64,000 nucleotides of DNA from Candidatus Marinacidobacterium sp. (GTDB taxonomy: Bacteria; Acidobacteriota; Vicinamibacteria; Marinacidobacterales; Marinacidobacteraceae), in the NCBI GenBank assembly GCA_965220965.1, contig OZ244852.1, positions 896,001 through 960,000 on the forward strand, written 5' to 3'. Shown here in pieces: positions 51,807 to 58,433 of the stretch. Under the pieces are notes generated by a model. The model was not told where the DNA came from. It saw only the letters and a list, made by a program, of their open reading frames with translations, and made no database searches. Position 1 is the stretch's first letter; every line of letters begins with the position of its first letter. Position numbers and translations under genes: made by a program.

Positions 51807-52222
51807 AGGCGACGCCCGTCCTCGTTTACGACGGGGGCTGCGGGATCTGCACCCGCCTGGTGCGCGCCGCCGCTCGTTTCGCCGGCGACCGCGAGGTCCG
51901 CTATCTGGCCTACCAAACGCTGCCCGACGAGGACTTCGCGCGGCTGGGCGTGACCCGCGCCGAGTGCGAGGCCCGGCTGCGCTTCCGCAACCGGCGCGGC
52001 CGCTGGTTCGGGGGCGCCTTCGCGGTGAACCGGTTCCTGTGGTTCGCCGCCCCGCCAGGCCTCCGGGGAGCGCCGGCGAGGACGCTGGTTCTAGCCTTCT
52101 ATCTGCTGCCGCCGCTCCTGCTGCTCGAGGTGATCGGTTACGCGCTGGTGGCGCGGAACCGCGGGTGCGACGCCTCCGGGAGCGCGGTTTCCGGCCAGTC
52201 AGCCGGACCGACATCCTGTTAG
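51803..52222 (+). CDS. DCC1-like thiol-disulfide oxidoreductase (DUF393)
   Basis: VLVYDGGCGIC, YQ, GAFAV, Y.LVARNR; apparent CTG start overlapping the upstream TGA. Confidence 0.8.
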   Translation: MKATPVLVYDGGCGICTRLVRAAARFAGDREVRYLAYQTLPDEDFARLGVTRAECEARLRFRNRRGRWFGGAFAVNRFLWFAAPPGLRGAPARTLVLAFYLLPPLLLLEVIGYALVARNRGCDASGSAVSGQSAGPTSC

Positions 52223-52251
52223 TCTGCGCACCCTCGCCAGGAGGCTCCGCC

Positions 52252-53121
52252 ATGCTTCGATCCGCTCTGTTCCTCGCCGCCCTGCTGCTCGCCGCCGCGT
52301 GCGCGGCGCCTCCCGCCGAGGAACCCGCCGGGCCGATGCCGGTCGCCGTTGCGGATCAGCCGGCGGGCGAGTACGTCCGCTTCGCGGATGCGGCGGGGAC
52401 CGCGGCCTGGGGCCGGATCGAAGGGGACGGAATCGCGGAGCTCCACGCTGCGCCCTGGAGCGGCGGCGCCCCGACCGGGCGGGTCGTCCCGAGGGACTCG
52501 GCGACGCTCCTCGCCCCGGCGACCCCCGGGAAGGTCATCGCGATCGGCCTGAACTACGCCTCGCACCTCGGGGGGCGTGAGCCGGCGGCCTATCCGGGCG
52601 TCTTCGCCAAGCTGCCGACAAGCATCGTCGGGCCAGGCGACGCGATCGAGATGACCGAGGACGCCGGGAATGTCCATTACGAGGGCGAACTCGTCATCGT
52701 CATCGGAACGGAGGCCCGCGACGTTCCGGTGGAGAGCGCCCAGGACGCCATCTTCGGGGTGACCGCCGGCAACGACGTGAGCGAGCGCGACTGGCAGGGC
52801 GCGGATCTTCAGTGGTTCCGGGCCAAGGCCTCGGACACCTATGGACCCATCGGCCCGGTGATCTCCCGGGGCGTGAACTACGACGACCTGCTGCTGACGA
52901 CCCGGCTGAACGGGGAAGTCGTCCAGGAGCAGCGGACCAGTGACCTCATCTTCGACACGAGCACGATCGTGAGCTACGTGAGCCGCTACGTCACGCTCAT
53001 GCCGGGTGACGTGATCTTCACCGGAACGCCGGGGACCACCCAGGCCATGAACGAGGGAGACATGGTCTCCGTCGAGGTCGAGACGGTCGGTCTGCTCGAG
53101 AACCCCGTCGCCCGCCGCTGA
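52252..53121 (+). CDS. Fumarylacetoacetate hydrolase family protein with lipoprotein signal
   Basis: KVIAIGLNYASH, VHYEGEL, NDVSERDWQ, RAKASDTYGPIGP, PGDVIFTGTP; LLLAAAC lipobox; AGGAGG RBS. Confidence 0.92.
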   Translation: MLRSALFLAALLLAAACAAPPAEEPAGPMPVAVADQPAGEYVRFADAAGTAAWGRIEGDGIAELHAAPWSGGAPTGRVVPRDSATLLAPATPGKVIAIGLNYASHLGGREPAAYPGVFAKLPTSIVGPGDAIEMTEDAGNVHYEGELVIVIGTEARDVPVESAQDAIFGVTAGNDVSERDWQGADLQWFRAKASDTYGPIGPVISRGVNYDDLLLTTRLNGEVVQEQRTSDLIFDTSTIVSYVSRYVTLMPGDVIFTGTPGTTQAMNEGDMVSVEVETVGLLENPVARR

Positions 53122-53141
53122 GGCGACCCGGGCGACCGCGT

Positions 53142-53245
53142 TTGTGGGTCACTCTCGCCGAAGAGTGATCCACAAACGGATTTGTGGTTCATTCGTTAAC
53201 CACAAATGGATTTGCGTCTCACTTTTCGCCGAGAGTGAGACGCAG
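53142..53245 (+). repeat. Triple-hairpin direct repeat, copy 1
   Basis: Near-identical to 54464-54568; hairpins at about 53141-53176, 53180-53207, 53213-53244. Confidence 0.92.
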
Positions 53246-53297
53246 GAGGTAGGATCGGTCGTCCCGTGGCGCTCGTGGTGGCGCGCCGGTGGTCCCC

Positions 53298-54431
53298 ATG
53301 AGCCCTCCCCGCTACTCCCCGGAGCGGTTTCCTCCGTCCTCTCCTGATTGGGCCGGCCTTCTGCCGTGGCTCGGCCGCGCCCACCGGGCCATCGCACAGT
53401 ATGAGGGCGTCCTCGCTGGCGTTCCGAACCCGCAGATCCTCCTCTCGCCGCTCGCCGGCCAGGAGGCGGTCGTGTCGAGCCGGATCGAGGGGACCCGTTC
53501 ATCGCTGAGGGAGGTCCTGGCTCTGGACTCCACGGGGAGTGGTGATATCGGCCCGGATCGGGCGCCGCCGGATGTCCAGGAAGTCCTGAACTACCGGCTC
53601 GCGCTCCTGACCGCGGAGGGCATGCTCGAGAAACTGCCGCTCTCCCAGCGCGTGATCCGGCGCGCTCACGCCGTCCTGATGAAGGGGGTGCGGGGTGACA
53701 CGGCCGCGCCGGGGGAGTACCGGAGGATCCAGAACTGGATCGGAGCGCCCAACTCCACGGAGGCGACGGCGACTTTCGTGCCCTGTCCCCCCCAGCACAT
53801 TCCGGAGGCCATGGACGCCTGGGAGCGCTATCTCCACTCGGATACACCGGACGAGCTCTTCCAGTTGGCGGTCCTCCATGTCTGGTTCGAAGCCATCCAC
53901 CCGTTCCTGGACGGAAACGGCCGACTCGGACGCCTCATGATGCCGCTGTTCCTGGTCGCGAGGGGGATGCTGGTCCGGCCGAACCTCTACCTCAGCGAGT
54001 ATCTGGAGCGTTATCGGAGCGAGTACTACCGGCGCCTGCTGTTGGCGCAGAGCGGCGGCGACTGGCGCCCCTGGATGCGCTACTTCCTGACAGGGATCGA
54101 GCAGCAGGCCAACGCCAATGCGGAGAAGGCCCGCAACATCATGGAACTCCATGAGGAGGGTAAGACACGGGTCTCGCGGCTCCTGCGCTCGCAGTACGCG
54201 TCCGCGGCGCTGGACATGCTCTTCCGCAGCCCGGTGTTCCGCAGTTCGGACTTCCGCAGACACTCGGGAGCGCCTCGGCCGACGGCGATGCGGTTCCTGC
54301 GCGTGCTGCGGCGGGAGGGGATGCTCGAGGAACTCGTTGCCCCACGAGGCAACCGACCGGCCCTCCTGTGGTTCCCGGAGCTGATCGAGATCGCGCAACG
54401 CCCCTCGGACTTCGGACCGGTTCCTCCCTGA
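53298..54431 (+). CDS. Fic family protein (class II, N-terminal inhibitory helix, C-terminal wHTH-like region)
   Basis: Catalytic HPFLDGNGRLGR; inhibitory SSRIEGT; PGEYRRIQNWIG. Confidence 0.95.
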   Translation: MSPPRYSPERFPPSSPDWAGLLPWLGRAHRAIAQYEGVLAGVPNPQILLSPLAGQEAVVSSRIEGTRSSLREVLALDSTGSGDIGPDRAPPDVQEVLNYRLALLTAEGMLEKLPLSQRVIRRAHAVLMKGVRGDTAAPGEYRRIQNWIGAPNSTEATATFVPCPPQHIPEAMDAWERYLHSDTPDELFQLAVLHVWFEAIHPFLDGNGRLGRLMMPLFLVARGMLVRPNLYLSEYLERYRSEYYRRLLLAQSGGDWRPWMRYFLTGIEQQANANAEKARNIMELHEEGKTRVSRLLRSQYASAALDMLFRSPVFRSSDFRRHSGAPRPTAMRFLRVLRREGMLEELVAPRGNRPALLWFPELIEIAQRPSDFGPVPP

Positions 54432-54463
54432 TGGGTCACCCCTGGCGCGTCGGATCCAGGCCC

Positions 54464-54568
54464 TTGTGGATCACTCTCGGGCAGCAAGTGATCCACAAAC
54501 GGATTTGTGGTTCATTCATTGACCGCAAATGGATTTGCGTCTCACTTTTCGCCGAGAGTGAGACGCAG
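54464..54568 (+). repeat. Triple-hairpin direct repeat, copy 2
   Basis: Same orientation as copy 1; third hairpin identical. Confidence 0.92.
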
Positions 54569-54606
54569 AAGGGAAGCAGGCGGGCCGGCCGGGTCCCGGA
54601 GTAGCC

Positions 54607-55044
54607 GTGCGTCTCTGGTCGCTTCATCCCCGGGCCCTTGACCGGCAGGGCCTCATCGCGCTGTGGCGCGAGGGCCTGCTGGCGCGGAAGGTGTTGGCCG
54701 GAGAGACGCGCGGCTACCGGCATCACCCGCAACTCGAGCGCTTCCGGGCTCACTCCGAGCCGCAGGTGGCGATCGCCGCCTATCTGCACGCGGTCGCTGA
54801 CGAGGCCGACCGCAGGGGTTACCGCTTCGACCGGTCCCGGATTGGCGCTGCGGCCCGCGAGACGACGCCTATTCCGGTGAGCGACGGACAGCTCGCCTTC
54901 GAGGCCGGACACCTGGCCGCGAAGCTCGAGCGCCGGTCGCCGGAGGTCCTCGCGCAAGGGGATCCGCGAAAGAGCCCGGCGCCCCATCCGCTCTTCCGGG
55001 TCGTTCCCGGGCCGATCGCCTCCTGGGAGCGGCCGGACGGCTGA
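54607..55044 (+). CDS. Pyrimidine dimer DNA glycosylase / T4 endonuclease V-like protein
   Basis: MRLWSLHP..LD..GL.ALWREGLLA.KVL.G.T.GY.HHPQL.RFR, RGY.FD, GQL.FE..HL..KL. Confidence 0.88.
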   Translation: MRLWSLHPRALDRQGLIALWREGLLARKVLAGETRGYRHHPQLERFRAHSEPQVAIAAYLHAVADEADRRGYRFDRSRIGAAARETTPIPVSDGQLAFEAGHLAAKLERRSPEVLAQGDPRKSPAPHPLFRVVPGPIASWERPDG

Positions 55045-55059
55045 AACGACGGCCCGGCG

Positions 55060-55449
55060 CTACGCGTCGCCGCCGACCACCGCCTCCGCCTCGATCTCCA
55101 CGAGGTACTCCTCCCCGACGAGGTGGGCGAAGACCAGCGTGCAGGCGGGACGGGCGCTGGCGAACACTTCGCCGTGGACTCCGGCCACCGCCTCCCAGTC
55201 GGCCCCCGGCTTCACGTAGATGCGGGTGCGGACGACATCCTCCATGGAGCCGCCCAGCGCGGTGACCGCCGTGCGGACCTTGTCGAGGGCGTAGCGGGCC
55301 TGCGCTTCGGGATCGCCGAGGTGGACCGGACCGTCCGGGCCGGTCGCGGTCGTGCCGGAGACGAGGATCCGGTTCCCGACGCGCACCGCGCGGGAATACC
55401 CGAATTCGTCCTCCCACGGGACGCCGCTGGTGACGCGTCGGATCGTCAT
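55060..55449 (-). CDS. RidA/YjgF family protein
   Basis: SG.PWE...GYSRAVRVG, VSGTT, DVVRTR, RPACT, LVEIEAEA; GGAAGG RBS. Confidence 0.92.
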   Translation of the reverse strand: MTIRRVTSGVPWEDEFGYSRAVRVGNRILVSGTTATGPDGPVHLGDPEAQARYALDKVRTAVTALGGSMEDVVRTRIYVKPGADWEAVAGVHGEVFASARPACTLVFAHLVGEEYLVEIEAEAVVGGDA

Positions 55450-55453
55450 GGGT

Positions 55454-56889
55454 TCAGTTTCCTTCCTGTTGTGCGGGTGGGCGGGCATCCGCTTCGACCC
55501 GCACCCGGCCGAACTCCCCGTCGAGCTCCGGTTCGACCCGCAGCGATGGAGACACCGCGGGCAGCCGCGCGGCGCAGGCCCGGAGGACGGCCTTCTCATC
55601 CTCGGGGTCGCGGATCGCCACCCGGAGGGTCGTGAGGTCCGTAAGCGAACCGCCCAGCGAGAGGAGAGCGCCCTCGATGCGGTCGAGGTGGAAGTGGGTC
55701 TCGGCCGCCGCGTCGTCGCCGCCGATGCGGCGGCCGCGGTGGAGGGGGGCCTGGGCGGAAAGCCGGATGCGGTCCGCCTCCCGGACCGCGAGCGGAGTTC
55801 CCCCGGAGGAGAGCACGGCCTCCTCCTCCGTCCGGTAAGGGGCGGGGAAGGAGGAGATGTGGTGGCTCAGGTCGCCGGAAGCCGTCAGGTAGGGAGCGCG
55901 GCGATACTCGTCCCCGCAGTCCCCGGGGATCGGATCCAGCTCGCGGGCGGCCGCGTCGAGCTCGCGGAGCGCATCCCGGTCGAGCGTCAGGTCCATCACG
56001 CGCCGGTTGTCTTCGAGGTGGTCGGACGCCCCGGGGCGGGCGCCCACGATGATTCCGGCCACCGCTGGCTGATCCAGCACGAAGCGGGCGGCCACGTTCG
56101 CGAGCGAGGCGCCCGAGCGGCGGCCCACGCGGTCCGCCGTCTCGAGGAGCGCCTGGAAGCGCTCCCACCCGCCCGCGGTCCGGAGGAAGCGTAGGTACTT
56201 CTGCTGCGACCAGGTCAGCGAGTCGTCGCCGACCGCTGGCTCCGGGGCGCCAACCCAGCGTTCGCTCAGCAGGCCCCCGGCGAGCGTCCCGTAGGCGAGC
56301 AGGCGCACGTCGTGAGCGCGGCAGACCGCGGTGAGCGCGCCGGCGGCGCGGCGGTCGAAGAGCGAATAGGAAACCTGGTTCGAAACGACGGGAAAGCCGC
56401 TCCGGAGCGCGAGGTCGAGGTGGGGAGCGTCGAAGTTCGTGACGCCGAGCTGACCGATCAGCCCCTCCTCCCGCAGCTCCGCAAGATGCTCCATGCAGTC
56501 GAGCCACGCCGGGTCGGCGTAGCGCCAGGCGTGGAACTGGAGCATGTCGAGACGGTCCACGCCGATCCGGTCGAGCGACCGCCGGACCGCCGCGCGGACC
56601 GCGTCGCGCGAGCCCACGCCAGGCTCGGCGACCCACTTCGTGAGGACCCGGACCTCGGGACGGCGTCGCCGGATCGTCCCGGCGATGATCTCGGCGGTCC
56701 CGTAGTGGTCGGCGACATCGAACGTCGTGAAGCCAGCCTCCACCATCGGCTCGAGCGCATCGGCCGCCCGCTCCGGATCCAGGCGAGCGCCGTCCCTTTC
56801 CTGATCGGCGACCTGCAGAGCCCGGTGAGAACGCGGGCGACCGGCAGCTCCGGCGCGAGGCGCGTCGAAGGGACCGGGACCGGACTCAC
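55454..56889 (-). pseudogene. Aldo/keto reductase with C-terminal Rid-like domain; 1-nt frameshift near 56816 (pseudogene or assembly error)
   Basis: GTG 56889 reads ...RVLTGL, then TG (instead of TGG), then QVADQERDG... in the frame of TFDVADHYG, LQFHAW, GVTNFD, SNQV, YGTLAGG. Confidence 0.8.
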
Positions 56890-58388
56890 CCGGGCGGCAG
56901 GGTGGCGAACAGACGGCGGGTGTCGACTTCCTGGCGCAGCCGGCGGAACTTGACGAAGAAGATCAGCGAGGCGACCCCCATCACCAGGAGCCAGATCCAG
57001 GTGGAGTGGAAGTACCAGGCGGGGACATCGGAGTTCAGGTCCCGGGCGGTATGGAGGATCAGGAAGAGGCCGAGGAAGGCGGCGCCCACCGCGCCGGTGA
57101 GCCGCCGGAGCCCGGGAGAGAGAAGCGTCATCGCTCCGGCGAGCTCGGGATTGCGCCGCGGCAGCCACAGGACCGAAAGGCACATCAGGCCGAAGTTCAC
57201 CAGCATCGAGGTCACCAGGATGTCGATGCCGAGGAAGAAGTCGCCCGCGAGATGGCTCCCCAGGATCCCGACGGTGGCCATGAGGCCGCTCGCCACGATG
57301 GCGACGGACGGCGTCCGGAAGCGGGGATGGACCGACGCCGCCCGCCGGGGGAAGACGCCGTCCTCGGCCCAGGCGAACATGAGCCGCGAGACCGCGAGCA
57401 GCATCGCCGGGAGATCGTTGATCAGCGCGACCGCCGCGCCCCCGAGAATGGCCGCGGTGGCCGCCGCCGGGAGCAGGTATCCGAGAAGGCCCGGCGCCGT
57501 CAGGTCCCGCACCTGCGCCTCGGCCTCCACGAATTGCCACGGGACCGCGTGGAACACCGCCGCGGTGAAGAGCAGATAGAAGCCGCCGACCGCCCCGACC
57601 GCGATGCCGATGGCGAGCGGGAGGTTCCGCCGGGGGTTTTTCGCCTCGCCCCCCGCCTGGGCGATGGAATCGAAGCCGATGAAGGTGGCGAACAGCAGGA
57701 CGGAGGCGGCGAGCAGCGGGACGAGCCGGAGCGGCGCGTCGGGCGCCGGGGGAACCGGGCGGCCTTCGGCGCTCAGCAGCGCGGCGGCGAAGTCGCCGTG
57801 ATCGAACGAGAAACCGGCCACGATGACGACGCCGCCCAGCACGAACATGAGCGCCATCATCGGCAACAGCGTGCGCTCGTAGAGCTTGAGCCCGCGGACA
57901 TTCACTCCGACGAACGTCCAGAGGAAGGCGAGCGCGATCCCCACCCGGGCCGGACCGGTCTCGAGGAGTTCCGCGAGGCCGGCGGCGCCCAGCGTCGAGG
58001 CGATGTCGCGGAGGAAGGGAACGATCAGATAGGAGACGACGCCGATCGCGATGGAGAGCCCGAACCACTGCGAGAAACTCGCGGCGAAACCCCAGTAGGG
58101 GCTCAGCGAGCGGCTGGCGTAGACGTAGCTGCCCCCGGCGCGCGGCATCGCCGAACCCAGGGTGGCGTAGGCCAGCGCGGCGAGAATTGCCGGGACCGCC
58201 GCCAGCAAGTACGCGCCCAGCACGTGCGGACCGATTCCGGGCACGCTGCGCGCCAGCGTGAACGGCATCACGTTGATCGCGGCGCCGAGCATCGAGCAGA
58301 TGCCGGTCGCCGCGAGGCCGGCGAGCCCCAGTCTGCGGGTCAGGCCCGAGGTTCGCTCAGCCTCGTTCTGCGAGGGGGGAGTCGTCAT
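56886..58388 (-). CDS. APC family amino acid permease
   Basis: SMLGAAI, AMPRAGGSYVY, FIGFDSIAQAGGEAKNP, SRLMFAWAEDG, HPRFRTP; about 12 TM helices. Confidence 0.92.
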   Translation of the reverse strand: MTTPPSQNEAERTSGLTRRLGLAGLAATGICSMLGAAINVMPFTLARSVPGIGPHVLGAYLLAAVPAILAALAYATLGSAMPRAGGSYVYASRSLSPYWGFAASFSQWFGLSIAIGVVSYLIVPFLRDIASTLGAAGLAELLETGPARVGIALAFLWTFVGVNVRGLKLYERTLLPMMALMFVLGGVVIVAGFSFDHGDFAAALLSAEGRPVPPAPDAPLRLVPLLAASVLLFATFIGFDSIAQAGGEAKNPRRNLPLAIGIAVGAVGGFYLLFTAAVFHAVPWQFVEAEAQVRDLTAPGLLGYLLPAAATAAILGGAAVALINDLPAMLLAVSRLMFAWAEDGVFPRRAASVHPRFRTPSVAIVASGLMATVGILGSHLAGDFFLGIDILVTSMLVNFGLMCLSVLWLPRRNPELAGAMTLLSPGLRRLTGAVGAAFLGLFLILHTARDLNSDVPAWYFHSTWIWLLVMGVASLIFFVKFRRLRQEVDTRRLFATLPPG

Positions 58389-58433
58389 CGGGGCTCGGGA
58401 AAGGGGTCCAGTGCGGACCTCCGGTTCTCCAGT

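Follow-up and report, generated by a model that had tools for sequence, protein, structure and literature searches.

A stretch of 64,000 nucleotides from a Candidatus Marinacidobacterium genome (contig OZ244852.1, positions 896,001 to 960,000 of the forward strand; called the window below) carries a fic gene that is bracketed by two copies of a palindromic DNA element. The features of the locus are collected in Table 1. The two copies are direct repeats, and the fic gene is the single gene that they enclose. A first-pass annotation of the same DNA had described them as near-identical and AT-richer than their surroundings, which is correct: the whole elements are 91% identical (BLAST, E 1.1e-36), a repeat search finds an 86-nt core of 95% identity and a 16-nt head besides, and the copies have GC contents of 0.49 and 0.495 in a window of 0.717. 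Copy 1 begins 20 nt past the stop codon of the upstream gene and ends 52 nt before the fic ATG, with its last palindrome at positions -86 to -53 relative to this codon. Downstream, 32 nt separate the fic stop codon from copy 2, and a further 38 nt separate copy 2 from the GTG of the following gene.

Table 1. Features of the fic locus, in positions of the window.
Feature	Position	Strand	Composition or basis
Fumarylacetoacetate-hydrolase family gene	51964..53121	+	Pfam FAA_hydrolase, E 2.5e-59
Variable region	53122..58432		blastn synteny and Pfam
Array copy 1	53142..53245		A-B-A, 1.5 units
Copy 1, first A palindrome	53142-53175		half-sites 53142-53152 and 53165-53175
Copy 1, B palindrome	53182-53205
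Copy 1, second A palindrome	53212-53245
fic gene, SoFic family, class II	53298..54431	+	Pfam Fic and Fic_N, PADLOC SoFic, PDB SoFic chains
Array copy 2	54464..54568		A-B-A
Copy 2, first A palindrome	54464-54498
Copy 2, B palindrome	54505-54528
Copy 2, second A palindrome	54535-54568
Pyrimidine-dimer DNA glycosylase gene	54607..55044	+	Pfam Pyr_excise, E 6.4e-24

The element occurs twice in the 3.25-Mb genome (G000; two contigs, 94% complete). The remaining BLAST rows are the element against its own reverse strand, together with two chance matches of 14-19 nt (E 4.14). The sequence TGATCCACAAA, with at most one mismatch allowed, has six occurrences in the window, all of them within the two repeats, where 0.11 would be expected. 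The repeats had at first been likened to repetitive extragenic palindromic (REP) elements, including REPINs, served by RAYT transposases, and this identity is rejected. The alternating palindromic units, the fixed short linkers and the intergenic or intra-operon sites are indeed shared with bacterial interspersed mosaic elements (BIMEs), but REP/BIME-RAYT systems have tens to hundreds of dispersed copies, whereas here there are two at one locus, tied to one gene family. The relatives likewise have one locus per genome, and no RAYT gene was found, PF01797 having no match in G000 at its 94% completeness (the control was positive in 6 of 14 genomes).

An array of A and B palindromes

The building block of the element is an 11-bp half-site, L = TTGYGNNTCAC, with its inverse R = GTGANNCRCAA. 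Two palindromes are made from it, A (L-12-R) and B (L-2-R), and a 6-nt spacer follows each, which gives a period of 70 bp and half-site centre-to-centre distances of 23, 13 and 17 bp. Comparison with relatives shows that the two repeats of G000 are 1.5 units (A-B-A) of a strictly periodic array, with the spacers ACGGAT and ATGGAT. The three back-to-back palindromes per copy noticed in the first-pass annotation are real, and its idea of a structured element under selection is supported. The copy number of the array ranges from 1.5 to 9 units, with up to 18 palindromes. A repeated peptide coded by the array is excluded, since a period of 70 bp is not divisible by 3.

Copy 1, copy 2 and 22 homologous elements from 12 other genomes were aligned. 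The half-site spacing is without drift in these 24 elements and also in 21 array regions from 14 genomes. The outer half-site positions (TTG, TCAC) are near invariant. Pairing is mostly absent from the stem centres (columns 6-30 are unpaired in 17 of the 24 elements, columns 48-59 in 19), and several central pairs of the A-B-A alignment are unpaired in 14-19 of its 24 rows. The central dinucleotides of the A palindromes vary by taxon (TC, GA, GC, CA, TA), with joint changes in the arms. The two copies in G000 are 91% alike mutually and at most 78% alike to any other array, which means a recent duplication or gene conversion.

Several known chromosomal sites were compared with the array and rejected. 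The half-sites look like half of a parS, but the sole parS-like 16-mer of G000 (C1:2400057, about 4 kb from dnaA, likely an origin marker) is contiguous, which the arrays are not. A likeness to DnaA boxes was noted as well, but no half-sites are clustered near dnaA (C1:2394662-2396281); strict half-sites number only 5+3 in the genome, 4 of them within arrays, and the GC skew has no turn within the window. A search with the E. coli dif motif gave a single 28-mer with a good XerD arm (C1:1191100), which is likely to be a terminus marker and is unlike the R-6-L units.

The enclosed gene and its relatives

The fic product has 377 amino acids counted from the ATG at 53298, the reading frame being open since a GTG at 53289. 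Against the PADLOC SoFic profile PDLC03963 it scores E 2.7e-105, with residues 4-367 covering positions 7-359 of the 361 in the profile, and it aligns with the SoFic chains in the PDB at E about 1e-34 over residues 28-362, an alignment that spans the C-terminal winged helix-turn-helix (wHTH) domain. The match to Pfam SoFic-like_C is weak and under the cut-off (E 0.0041). The alignment contains an N-terminal inhibitory motif, SSRIEG, for which the consensus is [ST]xxxE[GN], and an active-site motif, HPFLDGNGR. For the latter, an earlier paper gives the consensus HPFx[D/E]GN[G/K]R (PMC2686095), and examples of the inhibitory motif in two relatives are found in passages on CccR (PMC9755527) and on SoFic (bioRxiv 10.64898/2026.07.09.737422). 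Judged by these likenesses, the gene encodes a SoFic-family defence toxin, that is, a class II Fic protein with a C-terminal wHTH domain. SoFic is described as an anti-phage toxin in PMC12249575 and bioRxiv 10.1101/2022.05.11.491447; the former also describes it as toxic and hard to clone, and for this reason tight control of the gene is expected.

A tree of 18 Fic sequences places eight array-associated proteins of the family in one clade (support 100/100). All eight genes have an array upstream, as does a frameshifted fic in G021 that was left out of the tree; a Fic paralog in G000 itself lies outside the clade and has no array. Genes in the relatives were called with a simple heuristic of open reading frames (ORFs) and third-position GC plus homology, and the counts overstate the support, because relatives are not independent.

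The array of the congener G001 (L056:5171-5799) reaches 9.0 units of 70 bp (84% match) and adjoins the fic ortholog on its upstream side. Its L half-sites are near invariant (TTGCGTCTCAC), and drift is seen in the R half-sites. In G002 fic is preceded by about 3.5 units; the arrays of these two genomes had been missed by BLAST. In another genus, G006 has two A palindromes that end 13 nt before the fic ATG, and in G007 one isolated A palindrome stands behind the stop of a gene. The strict A pattern is present in 17 of 55 genomes of the order, and the matches that belong to arrays are confined to this family. With zero mismatches the same pattern was found in none of 400 other genomes sampled from the phylum; it is too strict for the variants of other taxa.

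In the sister genus BLAST finds the element in 12 of 13 genomes, at one locus apiece. The layout is geneX - array - [fic - array] - nqrA operon, with a gene for an SNF2 helicase sometimes replacing nqrA. Five of these genomes have fic between two arrays (G009, G018, G019, G021 and G024), so that the bracket first noticed in the window recurs outside it. The fic of G021 (L041:9572-10694) is frameshifted, falls into three tblastn pieces and is probably a pseudogene. Five others (G012, G014, G017, G022, G023) have one array and no fic.

The empty-site allele that the first-pass annotation had proposed to look for was found in one clean pair. G019 (occupied) and G023 (empty) have near-identical flanks, and the single array of G023 is a chimera: its left part is that of the upstream array of G019, its right part that of the downstream array of G019, and the crossover falls within a shared 25-bp B palindrome. 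This fits an exchange between direct repeats; one pair fits homologous and site-specific recombination equally. At the locus itself, contigs assembled from four sequencing runs over 52600-55100 contain no deletion or circle joint, which carries no weight either way; the unitigs break at the repeats.

Two further features of the sister-genus locus were noted. geneX, of about 470 residues, adjoins the array (L035:7170-8582 on the minus strand; L036:7903-9363 and L040:7837-9246 on the plus strand). It has no Pfam family above cut-off and a weak Xre/MbcA/ParS C-terminal match (E 0.003-0.08); it evolves fast, with 47-61% identity between most species, and is frameshifted or cut in G021 and G024. 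As the binder of the array geneX is rejected for G000, its own genus having no geneX detectable with the query used. A stretch of some 250 bp ahead of nqrA, where the nqr operon begins (L035:1-250 compared with L037, L038, L043 and L044), is 85-90% identical between species, with the adjoining intergenic DNA unconserved, and may be a leader or regulatory element.

Arrays in other phyla and in defence operons

Metagenome contigs were scanned with a pattern of B, spacer and L, which selected 79 loci. Arrays, counted as clusters of at least 4 half-sites, are present in 52 of them, on contigs with GC from 0.37 to 0.70, and 30 of the 52 have a SoFic homolog (35-64% identity) within the fetched DNA. 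In 25 of these 30 the array lies -1 to 149 nt past the end of the fic match (at most 80 nt in 24). It is found on both sides of fic in four, two of which are one contig, and mainly upstream in one. The array-fic-array bracket is seen in L186/L187 (one contig), L235 and L244, and L234 has three palindromes upstream and one downstream of fic; the contigs of L234 and L235 have a GC content of 40-42%. The other 22 array loci have no match to fic; several of them are truncated contigs or duplicates of loci that do carry it, and in L233 the fic gene has decayed with its first and last codons retained.

Loci were also chosen by the Fic protein alone (n=80), an array here being at least 3 half-sites. 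Eight of them carry arrays, and these are eight of the 11 rows closest to the query; the eight include a row of 59% best-segment identity placed further down. Among the carriers are a cultured Prosthecomicrobium and metagenome-assembled genomes (MAGs) of an alphaproteobacterium, of Bryobacterales and of Binatia. In the cultured Prosthecomicrobium hirschii (L090) an A-B array follows the fic match at a distance of about 45 nt. More distant SoFic homologs lack the array motif and often have other long inverted repeats upstream; such repeats, with a score of at least 11, are present in 12 of 73 SoFic-like loci as against 2 in a coding control. The low-GC version of the array has no match in plasmids and Escherichia coli genomes.

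Another explanation is that the palindromes are mere strong terminator or insulator hairpins which shield a toxic gene and were duplicated by chance, with no specific binder. The short distance from the upstream stop codon to copy 1, whose first palindrome was scanned as terminator-like, and the lone A palindrome after a gene stop in G007 would suit such hairpins. However, terminators have no need of an 11-bp sequence and exact spacings that are kept across contigs of 37% to 70% GC, a T-run is missing from most copies, and mismatched stem centres are retained, all of which makes this explanation very improbable.

Outside the family, arrays recur in defence operons. Two slots were recognised, hsdS - SoFic - array - hsdR in type I restriction-modification (R-M) operons and pglZ - SoFic - array - brxL in bacteriophage exclusion (BREX) operons. 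Between the array and the start codon of hsdR there are often only 0-25 nt, and there are about 54 nt in the case of brxL; fic is translationally coupled to the upstream operon gene in loci such as L177 and L188. PrrC-type abortive-infection genes are embedded in type I R-M operons, and SoFic with its array occupies the slot of such a guard toxin. This likeness is one of gene context in other phyla and not of the element, and the module of the window lies outside any R-M or BREX operon.

It is in this setting that a cassette-like system has to be considered, in which the arrays would be recombination sites and a recombinase encoded elsewhere would insert, excise and swap defence genes. Imperfect palindromes that bound a single gene, and an allele with an empty site, are shared with integron attC and with pdif, and the R-6-L units are laid out 11-6-11 like the core site of a tyrosine recombinase, as are the Xer sites of Acinetobacter pdif modules. 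There is nevertheless no linked recombinase: five genes of G000 match PF00589, all of them outside the window and the nearest at C1:1124440, some 175 kb off, and the candidate dif site of this genome is unlike the array. No attC core motif was seen in the array when it was compared by eye with the attC consensus, and sequence is conserved in the arrays rather than structure alone. The integron identity raised by the first-pass annotation is for these reasons rejected. In other phyla the array lies 3' of fic in 25 of 30 loci, and SoFic is the cargo in 30 of 52 array loci.

The remaining evidence for a cassette is likewise divided. The hybrid empty site has its crossover within one palindrome, but this is the single clean occupied/empty pair found, and in L233 fic was lost by internal decay and not by excision. 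Array-fic-array stands in two unrelated contexts, between hydrolase and glycosylase genes in G000 and between geneX and nqrA in the sister genus, and similar brackets are present in the 40-42% GC contigs L234 and L235; most fic homologs, on the other hand, are flanked by the element on just one side, with translational coupling to the upstream operon gene. Cargo other than fic is flanked by the arrays of L207, and SoFic and Abi_C genes replace one another upstream of the array in one R-M operon, yet the cargo is overwhelmingly of one family: non-SoFic cargo is limited to a few cases (L207, L232 and L210), and no multi-cassette array of different genes was found. Arrays at rearrangement junctions in G009, G014 and G042 would suit a mobile cassette, whereas growth to as many as 18 palindromes fits unequal homologous exchange better. 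On balance we regard a cassette system as unlikely. Its most far-reaching form is doubtful as well, namely that the A/B module is an undescribed cross-phylum cassette site for defence genes, served by a recombinase in trans, with SoFic as the commonest cargo, Abi_C and SatD-type genes as others, and free-standing or R-M/BREX loci as its places of residence. The first-pass annotation had also suggested that the following DNA-repair gene may be part of a short cassette array, which is not supported, as no third copy follows that gene.

Three observations concern individual arrays of this set. In a Bryobacterales MAG (L094:3486-4660) a unit of about 478 bp, made up of the last 115 bp or so of fic, the array and about 290 bp more, is present in three tandem copies of 83-86% identity, and a probable tRNA gene, judged from ORF translation alone, lies about 0.5 kb beyond. 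In L232:3065-3215, upstream of hsdR, an insertion of two hairpins, resembling a miniature inverted-repeat transposable element, sets the third palindrome apart from the others in the array. In L191:2700-3200 (reverse strand) an unrelated tandem repeat of about 26 nt (CAAACCTTYGGGGTTCAGACGT...) adjoins the A/B array between a DUF5655 gene and hsdR.

Strand symmetry and a predicted binding module

The first-pass annotation had proposed that the top strand is selected to fold as single-stranded DNA or RNA, on the grounds that the A/G differences in the stems preserve G-T pairing on this strand. For the two copies in G000 the pairing statement is correct, but it is not general in the relatives. 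Among 45 A and 41 B palindromes of the family there are 23 G-T pairs on the top strand and 56 A-C pairs, the latter being wobble pairs on the other strand, and among the distinct palindromes of the wider set the two are equal (33 and 33). With RNA parameters the top strand has the stabler predicted fold in 8 of the 24 elements and the bottom strand in 15, one being tied; with DNA parameters the split is 14 to 10. There is hence no sign that one strand is selected for folding, and the symmetry is compatible with a symmetric protein on duplex DNA and with a cruciform.

True mismatches number 135 in the 86 family palindromes and gather at the stem centres, where positions 5-7 account for 54 in A and 81 in B; most B palindromes have two or three central ones. 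The proportion of paired cells in the 24 elements is 80.6%, compared with 79.1% in shuffles, and the outer stem positions pair merely through both arms matching the consensus. Sequence is therefore more conserved than pairing in these arrays.

These results bear directly on the suggestion that the array acts as RNA, either as a multi-hairpin transcript that restrains SoFic or as an intercistronic element that sets the stability or translation of hsdR or brxL mRNA. The setting would suit an RNA: a toxin gene is directly preceded by tandem repeats, whose number varies (1.5 to 9 units), arrays 0-25 nt before hsdR are probably transcribed, and passages of PMC12249575 place the antidote of E. coli SoFic, a small protein, immediately downstream of the toxin gene, the same position as that of many arrays. 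The predicted folds are also strong (-26 to -61 kcal/mol per 104 nt), and compensatory changes occur in the A palindromes across taxa. The wobble pairs, however, have no strand bias, or one in the wrong direction in the family, the stems of most B palindromes are interrupted by their true mismatches, and no Rfam family matched at E up to 1. The closest known design would be ToxI/ToxN, a type III toxin-antitoxin system that has a same-strand tandem array of variable repeat number directly upstream of the toxin gene. Unlike ToxN/AbiQ-type endoRNases, the Fic protein is an AMP-transferase and not an RNase, so that processing of the ToxIN type would be unexpected; the units here are palindromic, the SoFic arrays lie downstream of the gene as well, and they persist without the toxin. 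We consider an RNA role improbable.

The reading that we prefer, with a probability of about 0.5, is that the arrays are a double-stranded DNA binding module for dimers of the SoFic wHTH domain, and that the gene can be lost by recombination between the repeats. The linkage to one branch of wHTH proteins, the binding of relatives at their own promoters, the fixed spacings, the conserved outer positions and the lack of strand bias all fit such a duplex module. Two relatives provide the precedent, both of them class II Fic toxins with a C-terminal HTH or wHTH domain that bind as dimers to widely spaced inverted repeats beside their own genes. According to passages of PMC9755527, a dimer of the Fic-HTH protein CccR of Yersinia pseudotuberculosis binds two 10-bp inverted repeats 26 bp apart and represses its own promoter, and passages of bioRxiv 10.64898/2026.07.09.737422 report that SoFic dimers bind specifically within the 100 bp that precede their own start codon. 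Inverted repeats near the gene's own start codon, as expected of an operator, are found in G000, in the eight clade members and at the frameshifted fic of G021.

We hypothesise that the module is a cis-acting duplex element tied to one branch of the SoFic anti-phage toxin genes, and that dimers of SoFic would occupy the inverted half-sites through their own C-terminal winged-helix domain. Where the array lies just upstream of fic, as in G000 and the family, binding may repress or tune the transcription of the toxic gene. The second copy just downstream of fic would correspond to the usual position in other phyla. Recombination between the two arrays, presumably homologous rather than site-specific, would delete fic and leave one hybrid array, the direct orientation of the copies making this feasible. 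In the recognition helix, the residue that follows 'PTA' varies in part with the centre of the A palindrome (K with GA or GC, Q with CA, and T, A or S with TC). A sigma-70 promoter scan of 52900-54800 found none, and the fic promoter could not be placed by eye either.

Several observations weigh against this reading. The array is downstream of fic in most taxa, which is an unexpected place for an autoregulatory operator, and its position just before the hsdR or brxL start implies that it is probably transcribed. Its half-site geometry of 23, 13 and 17 bp is unlike the 36 bp of CccR (11-12-11 and 11-2-11 here, as against 10-26-10), the half-site sequence differs as well, and the operators of CccR and SoFic offer no parallel to a phased 70-bp array that is mostly downstream and brackets the gene with a second copy. 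The helix residue has exceptions (T with GA in L090, H with TC in L235), and its correlation with the palindrome centre is confounded by relatedness. Pairs changed on both sides number 14 in the 24 elements compared with 8.1 in shuffles, and such covariation would equally be explained by a hairpin or a cruciform. Intact arrays occur in four genomes without any Fic homolog at E 1e-30 or better (G012, G014, G022, G023). In L207 two arrays flank a gene pair of the SatD family, and L232 and L177 share the same type I R-M operon with flanks 92-95% identical, an Abi_C gene replacing SoFic in L232 with the array kept. The downstream position, arrays that outlive fic and the few other cargoes together keep the terminator, cassette and RNA explanations alive.

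Searches of the literature for four half-site strings returned only unrelated primers and one unrelated site of the TetR family, and among the publications listed on Fic or winged-helix operators and on SoFic in R-M or BREX systems no title or abstract describes such an array. SoFic is a recently recognised single-gene anti-phage system. With its defined half-site and spacing, and its linkage to a single SoFic branch in several phyla, the module offers a concrete and cheap test of recognition by the wHTH domain and of restraint of the toxin by DNA or RNA binding. The element also explains the presence or absence of a defence gene between close relatives, and in R-M and BREX operons it delimits the place at which embedded toxins are swapped. 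Should the cassette or the RNA explanation prove true, a mechanism of mobility or an antidote mechanism would be added that is new for defence genes.

In the surroundings of the module, the hydrolase gene has orthologs of 80-87% identity in all five relatives searched and forms the conserved left flank of the variable region, which holds the first array, SoFic, the second array, the glycosylase gene, a RidA-like gene, an aldo-keto reductase and an amino-acid permease. The variable region is missing from G007, where the hydrolase gene abuts the counterpart of window position 58433, and other DNA takes the place of this 5.3-kb stretch in G005 and G006. The pyrimidine-dimer glycosylase gene is a neighbour and lies outside the module: in G002 it is about 13 kb from the hydrolase gene, inverted, and with no array adjoining. 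Between G000 and G002 (L057:17860-18204) the glycosylase gene alone is inverted, with the breakpoints at the edges of the gene.

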